Positions 1-26,872 of a stretch of DNA of 64,000 bases are shown piece by piece. The stretch spans positions 85,186 through 149,185 of the forward strand of contig JBAXKC010000002.1 of NCBI GenBank assembly GCA_037137535.1, in the 5' to 3' direction. Made by a program: the position numbers and the translations under genes. The DNA is from a bacterium (GTDB taxonomy: Bacteria; Cyanobacteriota; Vampirovibrionia; Gastranaerophilales; JBAXKC01). Positions within the stretch are counted from its first letter, which is position 1. The number at the start of each line of letters is the position of its first letter. A model generated the notes under the pieces. The model searched no databases. It saw only the letters and a list, made by a program, of their open reading frames with translations, and was not told the DNA's origin.

Positions 1-1148
1 GCTATATTTTCTAATTCCTTTATAGATTTTAAACCGCTTTGAGCTCCATAATTTTGAGTGATAGAGGCAGAATTAATAGAAGCCAATTTTAATGCTTTAT
101 CTATCTTCCACTCTTTCATTAAAGCCCCTATAAATGTACTTGCAAAAGCATCTCCTGCTCCTAATGTGCTAACAACTTCAGCAGGAAAACAAGGTGCGTA
201 ATATATTTGCTTCCCGTCAAAGGCTTGCGCTCCATTTGAACCATCTGTTATTACAACAATATCAGGACCCATTTCTTTTAAACATTTCAATTTATTAATT
301 GCAAAAAATCCCCATGGCTCAAGCAACAGCGAGCTTTGTGGGCATAATTCCATACATTTTGAGCAACCTTTAATGCATTTATCTATACTGCTATCTATAT
401 AGAGCTTACCTTCTTCTATGTTAAAAACTCTTTGAGGACAAGCTTTTAAACATTCATAACAAGATTTGCATTTTTCTTTATCAATTTTCAAAGTTTCATC
501 ATAAATTTTTGTTACTAATTCAGCTTCCGATTTATTCAAAACAAGAATTGATACTTTTGATAATATTTTTTTGAAATCATCAAAACCTCTTTTTAGCTGC
601 CTGGTACCAGGATTAAAACCTACCTTAATATTGTTCTTTTGTGCAAAATGAGTTATTTCATCAAGTATAATATTCGAATCGCCACTTAATGAAGAAATAT
701 AAAACCATTTTGTGTTTTTTAAAGCCTCTAACTTGATTTCATCTAATATTATCGAGCTATTTGCACCCCTATGAGTTAAGACAGTACGCTCACCCTCAAA
801 ACTGTTAAGAATAACACTAAAGCCGGTTTTAAAATCCTTGCATTTGATAATACTAGATTTATCAACATTTTGCTCTGTTAATCGGTTTAATATCGCTTTA
901 GCATTAAGGTCATTACCTATTTTTATAATGGTACTTGTATTAAAACCTAATATTGAAAAGTTTACTGCCGTATTAACTGCTCCCCCGCCAATATCAAAAG
1001 CTAAATTATCAATTTCAATTTTCGCTCCAAAATCAAAACATAACAATTTATTTACGTCTTCTAAAGTTTTTGTAGTTATTATTTTTGCAAATTCAGTTTG
1101 AATAAAAATATCTTGAGTAGCTCCACCAATAGTTATTACATCAAACAT
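1..1148 (-). CDS. PfkB/ribokinase-family carbohydrate kinase with inserted 2x[4Fe-4S] ferredoxin domain (3' end runs off the window)
   Basis: Hand translation from ATG at 1148 gives MFDVITIGGATQDIF...GGGAVNTAVN...FNPG...LNKSEAE...CKSCYECLKACP...CIKGCSKCMELCP...VVITDGSNGA...STLGAGDAF. Both PfkB signature regions are present and the frame is open to base 1. Absent from the ORF track because no stop lies in the window. Confidence 0.92.
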   Translation of the reverse strand, partial: MFDVITIGGATQDIFIQTEFAKIITTKTLEDVNKLLCFDFGAKIEIDNLAFDIGGGAVNTAVNFSILGFNTSTIIKIGNDLNAKAILNRLTEQNVDKSSIIKCKDFKTGFSVILNSFEGERTVLTHRGANSSIILDEIKLEALKNTKWFYISSLSGDSNIILDEITHFAQKNNIKVGFNPGTRQLKRGFDDFKKILSKVSILVLNKSEAELVTKIYDETLKIDKEKCKSCYECLKACPQRVFNIEEGKLYIDSSIDKCIKGCSKCMELCPQSSLLLEPWGFFAINKLKCLKEMGPDIVVITDGSNGAQAFDGKQIYYAPCFPAEVVSTLGAGDAFASTFIGALMKEWKIDKALKLASINSASITQNYGAQSGLKSIKELENI

Positions 1149-1248: not shown

Positions 1249-2019
1249 ATGTTTCAAAAAGAGATTATAAACAGTATTAGTTATTACACCTCAAACATGC
1301 TTAAATCTGATAAATTCATTCATGCTTTTACTACAAGATTGTTTGAAGATGCAGCAAATTTTACATTAGGGACAGGTGGTAATCCTGAAAATAAATTGTT
1401 AGTTGATGTGAATAGAAAAAACATATGTGAAGCATTTAATTTAGATATTAATAAATTAATAATTCCCGATCAGAAACATACTGATAATATAAAAATTGTT
1501 ACATCAGTTGACGATAATGTCAGCGAAACTGATGCTTTGATAACTAATGTAAAAAACTTGCCGATATTATTGTTATTTGCTGATTGTACGCCAATAATAC
1601 TTTATTCGGAAATAGATAATGTAATAGCAGTAATTCATGCCGGCTGGAGAGGAACTGCAAAAAATATAGCCCGCAAGACGGTTGCCCAAATGGGTGATTT
1701 TTTAGGCATTAAGGCTGAAAACATTAAAGCTGCTATCGGACAGGCAATTGGAATGTGCTGTTACGAAGTATCACAAGAAGTTAAGGACTTTTTATTATCA
1801 ACATTAACTCATGATTATGATAATATTATTAAGTCTACCGAAAATGATAAATTCTTTGTAGATTTGAAAAAAATAAATGAATACCAGCTTTTAGAATCAG
1901 GAGTAAATAATATAGATGTATTTGATATCTGTACCTCCTGCGAAAGTAATCAGTTCTTTTCTTATAGGGCTGAGAATGGTAAAACCGGACGACATGGTGC
2001 AATAGCTTGTTTAAAGTGA
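1249..2019 (+). CDS. pgeF: YfiH/PgeF family (laccase-domain / purine nucleoside phosphorylase) protein
   Basis: Motifs QKHTD, DALIT, ADCTPI, HAGWRG, CCYEV, CTSC, FFSYR, GRH. Confidence 0.93.
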   Translation: MFQKEIINSISYYTSNMLKSDKFIHAFTTRLFEDAANFTLGTGGNPENKLLVDVNRKNICEAFNLDINKLIIPDQKHTDNIKIVTSVDDNVSETDALITNVKNLPILLLFADCTPIILYSEIDNVIAVIHAGWRGTAKNIARKTVAQMGDFLGIKAENIKAAIGQAIGMCCYEVSQEVKDFLLSTLTHDYDNIIKSTENDKFFVDLKKINEYQLLESGVNNIDVFDICTSCESNQFFSYRAENGKTGRHGAIACLK

Positions 2020-2028
2020 GGACTCAAA

Positions 2029-3336
2029 ATGGTTGCCATTGACAGACGTGAAACGGTTAGTCAAGTACTTAATAAACTTTTTGATTTTGTAAAATCTGAT
2101 CAGTTTATTGCTGAAGATGTAAAAAAATATGCAAATGCCTTTATAACAACAGAAGAACAGGCAAAAAACGTTGATATTGAAGGACTTTTGCTTGCTTATG
2201 TTTTTGAAAGAAAAATAGATGATAAATTTGTAATGGATTTATTCATTGAAAAACAGACAGATTTATCTGATGAAGAAAAAGAAATCATTGACGGTCTTAA
2301 AAAATCCATTTATTCTATCTTTGAAATCAAAAAAGTATTAAAAAATGGATTTGAACTTTATAATATAGTTAATGAAAAAACTTATCCGACTTCAACAATT
2401 ATTAAATCAAGTAACTTTAGAGGAGTAGGTTCTGGAGAATATATTTTAGGACGAATCTTCCCATGCAAAGAAACTAATTATCTTATTGTATTGAACAAAA
2501 TTTTCCCGTCAGCAGCTAAAACTGAAGTTTTCAGATATGCTGTAATGATGCAAATGGAAAAACCGGAAGCTGTTTATCAAGATAATGAAACTAAATTTCA
2601 AGAAATAGAAAAAATGACTAAAGAACTTGCAACTACGTTTCAAGAATATTTTAACTCTTTAGAAATTGTTACAACAACAGAAAATCTTGACGAAATTTTA
2701 GCAGGCTTTAATGACTTTGTTGAATCTGGTGAAAAAACAAATATAGACAAACTGCCTGAACTGATTAAACAACCTGATGAATACAAATATTTTGATATAA
2801 ATGAAGTATCAAAAACTCAAGAAGGTGACTTTATTGATCAAGCGACAAAAGGTTTTTCTTCGGCTCCTGCAAGTTATGATGTTGGACTGATGTATGATGC
2901 AGAAACAGGTCTATTAGTTGTTCCTTTTTACGCTACATTTAGAGAAATTTTCAAAAGAGAAGATTATAAATCAGTTGAAGGATACCAAGATTGCATTAAA
3001 GAAATTTTTAATAATGATAAAGTTCCTCCATCTGTAATTGAAAAAGTTTATAATGAATTTTCTTCTAATTTTATGAATATTGTCAAAGAAGTATTAGAAG
3101 AAACAGAACTTCAATCTCTTGATGAACTTCTTAAAAAATACAAAAAAGACTATTATACACACAGGAAATTCTCTGTTCCTACAATGTTATACTCTTCCGA
3201 AGCATTTAATGAACTTATGTACCTTCTTCAAGAAGAGCAGTTGATGTCTTATATGAATAAAACTACGGAAAAAGTAGGAAGAAATGATTCTTGCCCTTGT
3301 GGAAGCGGCAAAAAATATAAAAAATGTTGCATGTAA
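2029..3336 (+). CDS. SEC-C metal-binding domain protein
   Basis: C-terminal KVGRNDSCPCGSGKKYKKCC; GAGGA RBS; remainder unassigned and not SecA. Confidence 0.85.
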   Translation: MVAIDRRETVSQVLNKLFDFVKSDQFIAEDVKKYANAFITTEEQAKNVDIEGLLLAYVFERKIDDKFVMDLFIEKQTDLSDEEKEIIDGLKKSIYSIFEIKKVLKNGFELYNIVNEKTYPTSTIIKSSNFRGVGSGEYILGRIFPCKETNYLIVLNKIFPSAAKTEVFRYAVMMQMEKPEAVYQDNETKFQEIEKMTKELATTFQEYFNSLEIVTTTENLDEILAGFNDFVESGEKTNIDKLPELIKQPDEYKYFDINEVSKTQEGDFIDQATKGFSSAPASYDVGLMYDAETGLLVVPFYATFREIFKREDYKSVEGYQDCIKEIFNNDKVPPSVIEKVYNEFSSNFMNIVKEVLEETELQSLDELLKKYKKDYYTHRKFSVPTMLYSSEAFNELMYLLQEEQLMSYMNKTTEKVGRNDSCPCGSGKKYKKCCM

Positions 3337-24847: not shown

Positions 24848-26872
24848 CTAAAGTTTTGGCTCAATTTCACTTTCAAAGATTTCTTTTGCTCTGTCAGAAG
24901 TAGCATTATAAATAAGTTGTCCGTTTACTGACATGTTAGGACCAACTCCGCATTTTTCAAAACAGAATCTGCCTTTAACAGCAACTTTATCTGAAACGTT
25001 TTTATCAGCTACAATTTCAATAAATTTTTGCATTGTGTCATAAGATCCGTTGTTATAGCAACATGTTCCTACACACACTTCAAGTTGTAATTTATCGGTA
25101 TCATCTTCTTTTGTGAAGCTAATGCCGCCTTCAATTCTCTTTTTGCTGTGATAATGAGTATGAAGAAACTCGTGTGCAAGTTCGCTGTTCGGATTTTTTA
25201 ACCATTCTTTGTAAAGTTTTTGAACATCAGTATTTTCATGTGATTTTCTGATTTTATGCTCTACATCAGACTGGTAAATACCTTTCATTCTGTCTTCTTT
25301 AATGGAAGGATCTTTACAGCTTTGCGGCTGACCGCCACCAGTAATACAACCTGCAGGACAAGCCATTACTTCAACCATATCATAATGAGCTTCTCCGCTA
25401 ATAATCTTTTTGCAAAGATCATCAGCTTCGTTTAATGTTGCACAGATAGCAATTTTAAGTTTTTTGCCTTCAAGGTCAACTGAGAACTCTTTAAATTTAT
25501 TAAATCCTCTAGCTTCCTCAACGACAATATTACCCATTGGCTTACCTGTAGCAACTTCATAAGCTGTTCTAAGAGCAGCTTCAAGAACTCCGCCTGTGTT
25601 AGCAAATATAACGCCTGCACCGGATAACATACCGAATGGAGCATCTGTTTCTTCAGGTTCAAGGTTTTTAATATCAATACCAGCTTCTTTAATCATTCTT
25701 GCAAGTTCTTGGGTTGTAAGAACGATATCAATATCAGCTTCGCCACCTTCAGCAAACTCAGGACGTTTTGCTTCAGCTTTTTTAGCAGTACAAGGCATAA
25801 TGGAAACAGTTACAACATCTTTTGATTCAATACCCATTTCTTGAGGTAAGAATTTTTTCATAACTGAACCGAACATTTGTTGTGGTGATCTGCAAGTTGA
25901 AAGATTGTTAAGTAATTGAGGATATTTCAATTCTGCAAATCTTACCCAAGCAGGACAACAACTTGTAAAAATAGGTAATTTTTCGCCTGTTTTAACTCTT
26001 GAAAGAAGTTCTGTTCCTTCTTCCATAATTGTTAAATCAGCGGAGAATGTTGTATCAAATACTTTATCGAAGCCCATTTTTCTAAGAGCCGCAACTATAA
26101 GACCAATTGAATTAGTACCTTTTGGAAGACCAAACGCTTCGCCTAGAGCAACTCTTACAGCAGGAGCAATTTGAGCAACAACTGTCTTTTTCGCATCTAG
26201 AAGAGCTTTCCAGGTTTGCTCTGTCTCAGATTTAATAGTTAAAGCTGCTGTTGGACAAACTTGAATACATTGACCGCAATAAACACAATCAACATCTTTC
26301 ATGTCTTTGCAGAATGCAGGAGTTACAACTGTTTTTGAGCCTCTGCCAGCAAATTCAAGAACTGATTGACCTTGAATTTCGCTACAAGCTCTAACGCAGT
26401 CACCACAAAGGATACATTTATTTGGATCTCTTACTACTGATGGGTTACTGTCATCAATAGCAGATTTTTCTTCTCTTTTACCGAATCTAACTTCTTTAAT
26501 GCCCATTTTTGTTGAAAGATCTTGAAGTTCGCACTCACCTGATTTTTCGCACATTGTGCATTCTCTGTTGTGGTTAGCAAGAAGAAGCTCTAAGGACATT
26601 TTTCTTACTCTTCTTGTTTTTTCGGTATTTACTTTAACTTTAATACCAGCTTCTGGAGGCATTGTACAACTTGATTGTACGCCTCTGCCTTCAACTTCAA
26701 CAACGCACATACGACAAGCACCATATATTGAAAGATCCGGTCTATAGCAGAATGTAGGTACATCTATTCCTGCTTTTCTTATAACTTCAAGAAGGTTTCT
26801 TTCATCGCTGAATTCTACTTCTTTACCGTCTACGAATAATATATTTTTTTTATCTGTTTTAACGTCAACCAT
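24848..26872 (-). CDS. hydA: [FeFe]-hydrogenase catalytic subunit (group A3, bifurcating type) with C-terminal thioredoxin-like [2Fe-2S] domain
   Basis: N-terminal Fe-S motifs; H-cluster motifs FTSCCPAW, MPCTAKKAE, EVMACPAGCITGGGQP; C-terminal CVGTCC…CFEKC. Confidence 0.95.
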   Translation of the reverse strand: MVDVKTDKKNILFVDGKEVEFSDERNLLEVIRKAGIDVPTFCYRPDLSIYGACRMCVVEVEGRGVQSSCTMPPEAGIKVKVNTEKTRRVRKMSLELLLANHNRECTMCEKSGECELQDLSTKMGIKEVRFGKREEKSAIDDSNPSVVRDPNKCILCGDCVRACSEIQGQSVLEFAGRGSKTVVTPAFCKDMKDVDCVYCGQCIQVCPTAALTIKSETEQTWKALLDAKKTVVAQIAPAVRVALGEAFGLPKGTNSIGLIVAALRKMGFDKVFDTTFSADLTIMEEGTELLSRVKTGEKLPIFTSCCPAWVRFAELKYPQLLNNLSTCRSPQQMFGSVMKKFLPQEMGIESKDVVTVSIMPCTAKKAEAKRPEFAEGGEADIDIVLTTQELARMIKEAGIDIKNLEPEETDAPFGMLSGAGVIFANTGGVLEAALRTAYEVATGKPMGNIVVEEARGFNKFKEFSVDLEGKKLKIAICATLNEADDLCKKIISGEAHYDMVEVMACPAGCITGGGQPQSCKDPSIKEDRMKGIYQSDVEHKIRKSHENTDVQKLYKEWLKNPNSELAHEFLHTHYHSKKRIEGGISFTKEDDTDKLQLEVCVGTCCYNNGSYDTMQKFIEIVADKNVSDKVAVKGRFCFEKCGVGPNMSVNGQLIYNATSDRAKEIFESEIEPKL

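Follow-up and report, generated by a model that had tools for sequence, protein, structure and literature searches.

A PfkB-family kinase with a nested dicluster ferredoxin-like module in Gastranaerophilales: an old and widespread architecture that may place a small-molecule kinase under redox control

The DNA analysed here, referred to below as the window, is a stretch of 64,000 nucleotides (assembly GCA_037137535.1, contig JBAXKC010000002.1, positions 85,186 to 149,185) from the genome, labelled G000, of an uncultured relative of gut bacteria in the order Gastranaerophilales. Its first 1148 positions carry, on the minus strand, a gene for a PfkB-family kinase in which a ferredoxin-like module is nested. 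The window edge cuts this gene (1..1148; open reading frame 3..1148), leaving the frame open at that point: codons 1-382 (382 aa) lie within the window, while the final 18 codons and the stop codon, recovered by fetching the contig around the window, precede window position 1 (G000:C2:85134-85185, minus strand). The complete gene, G000:C2:85134-86333 (-), encodes a protein of 400 amino acids (aa). A minus-strand PfkB kinase had already been recognised here in a preliminary description made from the letters of the window, and Pfam agrees (PF00294, 141.2 bits against a cut-off of 25.8, E value 5.7e-41), with the PfkB match falling into two stretches around residues 219-287, both of which exceed the cut-off in a profile scan of the bacterium's own genome.

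The N-terminal part of the kinase (residues 1-214; 507..1148, minus strand, as are all features of this gene) contains the strands of the lid, residues D13 and K43, the GGGAVN motif (residues 54-59; 972-989) and the NxxE motif (N205-E208, inside LNKSEAE; 525-536), and its Pfam PfkB stretch covers residues 41-218. Further downstream lie the nucleotide-binding hairpin T301-D-G-x-x-G-x-Q308 (225..248; T301-D302-G303 being part of VVITDG), in which T301 and G303 are invariant or nearly so, and the catalytic and anion-hole motif G330-A-G-D333 (150..161; residues 330-335 read GAGDAF). This last motif is invariant in an alignment of 77 sequences, as are D13, K43, G54, G55, N59, N205 and E208, so that the four kinase motifs named in the preliminary description are present and intact. 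In the alignment with sequences from the PDB, K43 of ribokinase pairs with G56 of the protein studied here. According to PMC5931981, magnesium is bound by the NXXE motif, close to the phosphate-donor site, the GXGD motif supplies the catalytic Asp and forms the anion hole, and PfkB members dependent on pyrophosphate (PPi) carry the signature RXGRGD. Since the motif of our kinase reads LGAGD and not RXGRGD, the phosphate donor is probably of the nucleotide type, and a PPi-dependent kinase was rejected. With its catalytic apparatus intact, the protein is most likely an active enzyme.

The nested module comprises residues 219-280 (about 60 residues; 309..494). Its start lies 10 residues past E208 (NxxE motif) and its end is marked by the tripeptide E277-P278-W279 (312..320), which is followed by a helix and then by the T301-D-G-x-x-G hairpin; both of its ends are tied into the kinase body, through TGIxxxxxxID and EPW. 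Five Pfam families of the Fer4 clan match within residues 220-272, each above its cut-off (given in brackets): Fer4_6 at 32.0 bits (25), Fer4_9 at 30.4 (27), Fer4_2 at 29.9 (24.5), Fer4_10 at 29.0 (25.5) and Fer4 at 24.3 (21.1); Fer4_21 and Fer4_7 fall narrowly below theirs. The preliminary description had proposed a ferredoxin of the bacterial type, with about 55 extra residues separating the NxxE motif from VVITDG. These five matches, flanked by the two PfkB stretches, speak for that reading, and the spacer between NxxE and GAGD is indeed long, measuring 118-121 aa in the insert-bearing forms as against 55-79 aa in 164 of 248 relatives. When the insert is used as a profile, its positions 7-62 align with dicluster domains of known structure (MvhB at 4.6e-48, HdrA at 3.6e-15, RnfB, and Rpo3/D at 1.3e-9), and the insert by itself also matches ferredoxin domains among PDB sequences. 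A frameshift or an assembly artefact was rejected, as the reading frame is unbroken and more than 100 homologs have the same architecture.

The eight cysteines of the module, whose codons lie at 470-339 as described earlier, are arranged in two motifs. The first, CKSCYECLKACP (C227-x2-C230-x2-C233-x3-C237-P238; 435..470), is a canonical CxxCxxCxxxCP. The second, CIKGCSKCMELCP (C258-x3-C262-x2-C265-x3-C269-P270; 339..377), had been described as another copy of the same pattern; all four of its cysteines are in place, but it is spelled C-IKG-C-SK-C-MEL-CP, that is CxxxCxxCxxxCP, one residue over the canonical spacing. Since the second motif includes the string CX3CX2C, a radical SAM protein was considered and rejected: PF04055 is absent from the 17 Pfam families matched at E <=0.1, and the motif lies inside a ferredoxin fold. 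The module is expected, from its sequence, to carry two [4Fe-4S] clusters, and taking sequence and structural models together we regard it as very probable that it binds iron-sulfur (Fe-S) clusters.

Searches for homologs support this expectation. Among the best 120 matches listed first, 28 have the insert, and a further 120 were listed with a profile made from divergent insert forms, 89 of them carrying precomputed Fer4 matches. At least 103 insert-bearing proteins were collected in this way, and the conservation of the cysteines, on which the earlier proposal depended, is high: 93 proteins have all eight (a count that includes P0004 and P0007, both motifs being present in each) and 10 are without exactly one. 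The sources name a Thermoplasmata archaeon, Planctomycetota, Armatimonadota, Cyanobacteria bacterium UBA8530 and Melainabacteria, and annotate these proteins generically, as 'PfkB family carbohydrate kinase', 'ribokinase', 'sugar/nucleoside kinase' or 'hypothetical protein'. In the 29 aligned insert forms, C227, C233, C237 and P238 of the first motif are found in all 29 and C230 in 28, whereas for the second motif the figures are 29 of 29 for C258, C265 and C269 and 23 of 29 for C262; P278 and W279 of the EPW junction occur in 29 and 28, respectively, and behind the insert 101 of 103 proteins have the form xPW. The non-cysteine positions of the insert hold 30-34% identity among insert forms, compared with 36-55% in the kinase body, and the insert is therefore under selection. 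Metagenomic loci give a similar picture: the insert is present in 14 of 80, always with eight cysteines and EPW (one of the 14 is identical to P0018, and two others are mutually identical in the insert segment). In the wider subfamily it is rare, being found in 3 of the best 150 cluster representatives (967 clusters at E <=1e-30).

All ten inserts with seven cysteines miss the second cysteine of one motif, motif 1 in three cases and motif 2 in seven. It is known that loss of this cysteine gives [3Fe-4S] clusters in natural ferredoxins. The seven proteins altered in motif 2 (P0091, P0094, P0095, P0097, P0099, P0104 and P0283) form one clade of insert forms, in which T, S or N takes the place of the second cysteine, a pattern which we take to be that expected of a [3Fe-4S]+[4Fe-4S] ferredoxin; some members of this clade add a C-terminal tail of about 30 residues.

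The spacing of motif 2 raises the question of whether the module might be vestigial in this particular protein, the CxxxC segment blocking the second cluster while the insert as a whole decays. Decay does occur in the family, as exemplified by P0342 and P0345, in which the length of the insert is kept and the cysteine pattern lost, and in three close relatives CP has become CT. The spacing is canonical in 86 of 103 inserts; the CxxxC variant, present in the other 17, all of them from clades of Vampirovibrionia, nevertheless keeps its four cysteines and is conserved over two orders of the class. Moreover, P0001 and P0002 are 71% identical in the insert and 72% overall, and the insert is modelled at values of 83-93 in the predicted local distance difference test (pLDDT). 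In view of this, we consider a vestigial module improbable. P0342 and P0345 themselves, with a spacer of 117 aa, a partly lost cysteine pattern and no Q308, resemble naturally decayed modules.

A model of the whole protein, built with AlphaFold2 from the 77-sequence alignment, reaches a pLDDT of 93.8 and a predicted template-modelling score of 0.92, and shows a ribokinase-like alpha/beta fold with a beta-lid. Foldseek matches it to ribokinase-fold structures with E values of about 1e-25 and template-modelling scores (TMt) of 0.84-0.89, the human and Escherichia coli ribokinases and YdjH being found at 3e-25 to 4e-23. The insert was also modelled separately from 19 sequences, with a best pLDDT of 77 and values of 48-54 for the other four models. 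In both the full and the insert-only models its secondary structure fits the (beta-alpha-beta)x2 fold of ferredoxins. The best insert-only model is matched by Foldseek to the ferredoxin domain of oxalate oxidoreductase (8e-5) as well as to FwdG and HydB, and superimposes on clostridial ferredoxin 1dur with a TMt of 0.80 and a root-mean-square deviation of 1.9 A (TMt 0.77 for 1fdn).

A homodimer, predicted with four clusters included, scored 0.57 against 0.00 for the best control, with at least 96% of the contacts shared between runs and a partner pLDDT of at least 85; in calibration, the mark used was reached by 20 of 30 solved one-chain pairs and by 1 of 23 solved single chains. This result may reflect memory on the part of the predictor, because ribokinase dimers have already been solved. 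The predicted interface is formed by the lid (residues 14-51, 80-85 and 107-127), as in the ribokinase- and YdjH-type kinases (1rkd, 1rka, 3h49/3in1, 5c41), which also have the fold and the GG, NxxE, TDG and GAGD motifs in common with our protein. Residues 219-280 lie outside this interface, and the module is therefore predicted to be peripheral and exposed. Among PDB sequences the best matches are to YdjH, at 3.8e-19, and to the ribokinase of E. coli, at 2.5e-15; either alignment consists of two stretches that skip residues 219-287, and the place of the insert, filled in the protein described here, is empty in all 56 PDB sequence matches. We can state with high confidence, on the evidence of motifs and models, that the protein should be a nucleotide-dependent kinase of the PfkB/ribokinase fold, predicted to be homodimeric and acting on a small-molecule substrate. 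The identity of this substrate is narrowed little by comparison with NCBIfam, where no equivalog was reached and all scores were far under the cut-offs (ribokinase TIGR02152, 111.3 against 299.65; the ribose-1-phosphate kinases NF053626, 106.9 against 330, and NF041134, 79.9 against 500). A role as glycolytic phosphofructokinase is weakened by the presence in the genome of a PF00365 phosphofructokinase and of three further PfkB genes. A close paralog was not found in the same genome, the next-best match having an E value of 1.4e-6.

The preliminary description had placed the ferredoxin inside the catalytic domain. It is indeed nested between the two halves of the PfkB domain; its site, however, is a loop of widely varying length across the subfamily, outside the core of the fold. 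Unrelated, cysteine-free segments of 25-45 residues occupy this loop in 58 of 341 family members, and the site after the NxxE helix appears from these sequences to be an insertion hot spot. In another branch of the subfamily, with members such as P0164, P0168, P0173 and P0187, such a segment, cysteine-free and of 25-45 residues, has the recurring pattern 'LLQ...Y.N..F....FFKEV'. A loop that tolerates any bulky insert would suit a purely structural role, in which the clusters stabilise or shape a long surface loop and take no part in signalling, as has been proposed for the clusters of several non-redox Fe-S enzymes; the repeated loss of the module from a retained gene (see below) points in the same direction. 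A structural role is difficult to reconcile with the maintenance of the eight cysteines, the prolines of the CP pairs and the EPW junction across bacteria and archaea at 39-45% identity of the kinase body, which would be costly for padding, and with the seven-cysteine variants, which match the pattern of functional diversification among ferredoxins. We thus judge a merely structural module to be rather unlikely.

The kinase falls in an unassigned subfamily which this order of Melainabacteria carries as a core gene in one copy per genome: it was detected in 199 of 201 genomes, including all 185 of high quality, and the two genomes lacking it are each 73% complete. The module is far less common. 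Among the 150 best matches, beyond which there are 60 weaker ones, the insert is spanned by four, namely G000 and three genomes of family f4, the others ending at query residue 211-236; judged by these matches, it has been kept in 2 of the 10 families of the order. A class-level sample of 121 genomes added family f11 alone (2 of 2 genomes, E <=1e-88). In 13 loci, genes with and without the insert occupy one and the same position, running divergently from a PgeF-like (Cu-oxidase_4) gene, and are therefore regarded as orthologs. As syntenic orthologs in most genomes of the order have no insert, the kinase scaffold works without the module.

In trees built from the kinase body, with the columns of the insert removed, the insert state requires 6-7 changes, at least three of which are forced by well-supported branches, and a single clade of all insert forms was rejected (approximately unbiased test, p 0.002). 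With the tree rooted on one distant insert-less outgroup sequence, the insert forms make up a basal grade within which the insert-less Gastranaerophilales are nested. The CxxxC signature is common to the clade of G000 and family f4 and to that of family f11, which belongs to another order, and it follows the tree of the body; in several insert-less relatives the deletion is still bordered by TGIxE..ID on one side and by EPW or DPW on the other; and insert identity tracks body identity. The guanine-plus-cytosine (GC) fraction of the insert (0.33, against 0.29 and 0.34 in its flanks) is unremarkable, which, together with the tracking of body identity and the course of the CxxxC signature, gives no support to a recent insertion or transfer of the module. 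The simplest reading of these sequences, for trees whose root was not itself inferred, would be a single ancient origin of the module, its vertical descent with the kinase and its repeated deletion. The insert-bearing genomes measure 2.9-3.3 Mb and 4.1-4.9 Mb, compared with 1.6-2.5 Mb in the main insert-less family, and gut sources are named in the titles of many insert-less records.

Taking into account the position and conservation of the module, we propose that it could act as an accessory sensor of Fe-S status on the kinase. With its two clusters in place and either reduced or intact, as under anoxic and iron-replete conditions, the module would be folded and docked rigidly through the EPW junction, and would keep the NxxE helix and the TDG hairpin next to it in their active geometry. 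Oxidation or loss of a cluster would loosen the module and lower the activity or the stability of the kinase, such that phosphorylation of a sugar-like substrate would follow redox, oxygen or iron status. Lineages with reduced genomes living in the stably anoxic gut might then have discarded the module, leaving the kinase without gating. That the clusters gate activity or stability by way of the NxxE helix and the nucleotide hairpin is, on sequences and models, quite possible, though we would put it at somewhat less than an even chance. Somewhat doubtful, but worth stating, is the broader proposal that this is the first Fe-S-gated member of the ribokinase superfamily, an ancient module wired into the Mg/adenosine triphosphate (ATP) site, with the redox state of the ferredoxin pool, oxygen or iron as the switch, and that the gut lineages have discarded this switch.

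Several considerations weigh against such gating. Two-cluster domains of the clostridial type are classically electron wires rather than sensors, and motif 2 of this protein has the non-canonical CxxxC spacing. The module is, by the comparison of orthologs, accessory and dispensable for the kinase scaffold, and its repeated loss shows that the kinase can do without it. That the clusters lie close to the ATP site is something that we infer from the topology of the chain and from an association of the insert with Q308, a residue that is Q in 99 of 103 insert forms but in 14 of the relatives with a short loop and in 9 of the 58 with a long one; phylogeny confounds this association, as only 3 independent pairs are available and a sign test (p about 1) has no power. 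The contrast between gut and environmental lineages is drawn from record titles and genome sizes. The idea of gating, or of a link to the ferredoxin pool, is also tempered by the genomic context, since no redox enzyme is a conserved neighbour at the kinase locus or at 9 insert-bearing metagenome loci.

This last observation also bears on a further explanation, according to which the module serves electron transfer or docking, its clusters forming a short wire that trades electrons with a partner such as a ferredoxin, a hydrogenase or a reductase working on the substrate or product of the kinase, or the module merely docking the kinase to a redox complex. The nearest solved relatives of the insert (MvhB, HdrA, RnfB, FwdF/G and HydB) are all electron-wire domains, the insert has an exposed, peripheral position in the predicted dimer, and the genome encodes three homologs of the large subunit of [FeFe]-hydrogenase. 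The phosphoryl transfer catalysed by PfkB kinases, on the other hand, needs no electrons, orthologs manage without the module, and these loci yielded no conserved redox neighbour. Such a role is in our opinion unlikely. Of the three hydrogenase homologs, one lies in the window and two elsewhere; the former (PF02906, E 6.8e-98, within a 675-aa open frame) is located at 25334-26188 on the minus strand (G000:C2:110519-111373), about 24 kb from the kinase, and nothing in the genome context ties these genes to it.

Gating of the kind favoured here would have parallels in other proteins. It is well known that the integrity or the redox state of a cluster controls a non-redox activity in NreB, in FNR (with its O2-labile [4Fe-4S] cluster), in PurF of Bacillus subtilis and in ABCE1/Rli1. 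The folds and cluster ligations of these sensors differ from those of the module described here, NreB being a one-cluster PAS histidine kinase; in ABCE1 a dicluster ferredoxin domain is joined to a nucleoside triphosphatase, at its N terminus and not nested. We know of no PfkB kinase or other small-molecule kinase among Fe-S-gated enzymes. With the clostridial 2x[4Fe-4S] ferredoxins and the related domains of HdrA, MvhB, RnfB, FwdF/G and HydB the module has in common the two cysteine motifs and, as predicted, the (beta-alpha-beta)x2 fold; unlike them, it is nested in a non-redox kinase with both ends tied to the host protein, and its motif 2 has, here and in its class, the CxxxC spacing. The closest printed precedent is the ferredoxin-like domain of Rpo3, a subunit of archaeal RNA polymerase: as reported in PMC5300874, this domain binds two [4Fe-4S] clusters, is non-essential, modulates assembly and occurs in many but not all lineages. 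Both are dicluster ferredoxin-like domains nested in a non-redox protein (PDB 2pa8_D, also matched by the insert profile as noted above, stands at rank 50 in Foldseek). They differ in that the readout is polymerase assembly in the one case and would be a small-molecule kinase in the other, and in that the kinase is known from sequence and models.

PfkB kinases are textbook examples of metal- and nucleotide-dependent enzymes and, to our knowledge, no Fe-S member of the family is known. The open full-text literature, which leaves subscription journals and supplements outside the search, yielded no account of any PfkB kinase that carries an Fe-S domain, and no solved PfkB structure with such an insert was found among the PDB sequence and Foldseek matches. 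The architecture thus appears to be old, widespread and undescribed, and it may let redox or oxygen state control an enzyme. The sequences are already public, under labels such as 'carbohydrate kinase' and 'ribokinase' that hide the Fe-S module. A conserved dicluster ferredoxin beside the Mg/ATP site would be an undescribed way of coupling redox or oxygen status to phosphorylation in anaerobes and, if gating is real, would represent a new class of redox switch in metabolism, with a small-molecule kinase as its direct target. The family also constitutes a natural experiment, with more than 100 insert forms from four bacterial groups and one archaeal class, seven-cysteine variants, decayed inserts and clean deletions at the same locus. 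With this material, comparing members of the family and swapping domains between them would be a simple way to test gating.

The surroundings of the kinase gene are only partly conserved. In the loci of Gastranaerophilales the sole syntenic neighbours, whether or not the insert is present, are the divergent PgeF/YfiH-like gene (Cu-oxidase_4, E 1.1e-61; 1249-2019, plus strand), syntenic in the 13 related loci mentioned above, and a gene (2029-3336, plus strand) for a protein of 435 aa, in which Pfam recognises just a SEC-C motif at the C terminus; this second gene keeps its place by the kinase in 10 related loci. Downstream of the kinase, before window position 1, are genes for a parvulin-type peptidyl-prolyl isomerase (Rotamase, E 2.2e-22) and a CPBP/Rce1-like intramembrane protease (L001:812-1327 (-) and L001:1-453 (+)). 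Neither is kept beside the kinase in relatives, the isomerase being matched in 1 of 109 loci. The recurrent neighbours at the 9 insert-bearing metagenome loci are limited to NTP_transferase (3 of 9) and MnmE (2 of 9). MnmE is found downstream of the kinase in L140 and L149. NTP_transferase, a sugar-phosphate nucleotidyltransferase, is located directly upstream and in divergent orientation at three of these loci (L146:1176-2396 (-), L149:971-1921 (-) and L155:2573-3460 (-)), a weak hint that the kinase may take part in a nucleotide-sugar route, perhaps in the salvage of nucleotide sugars.

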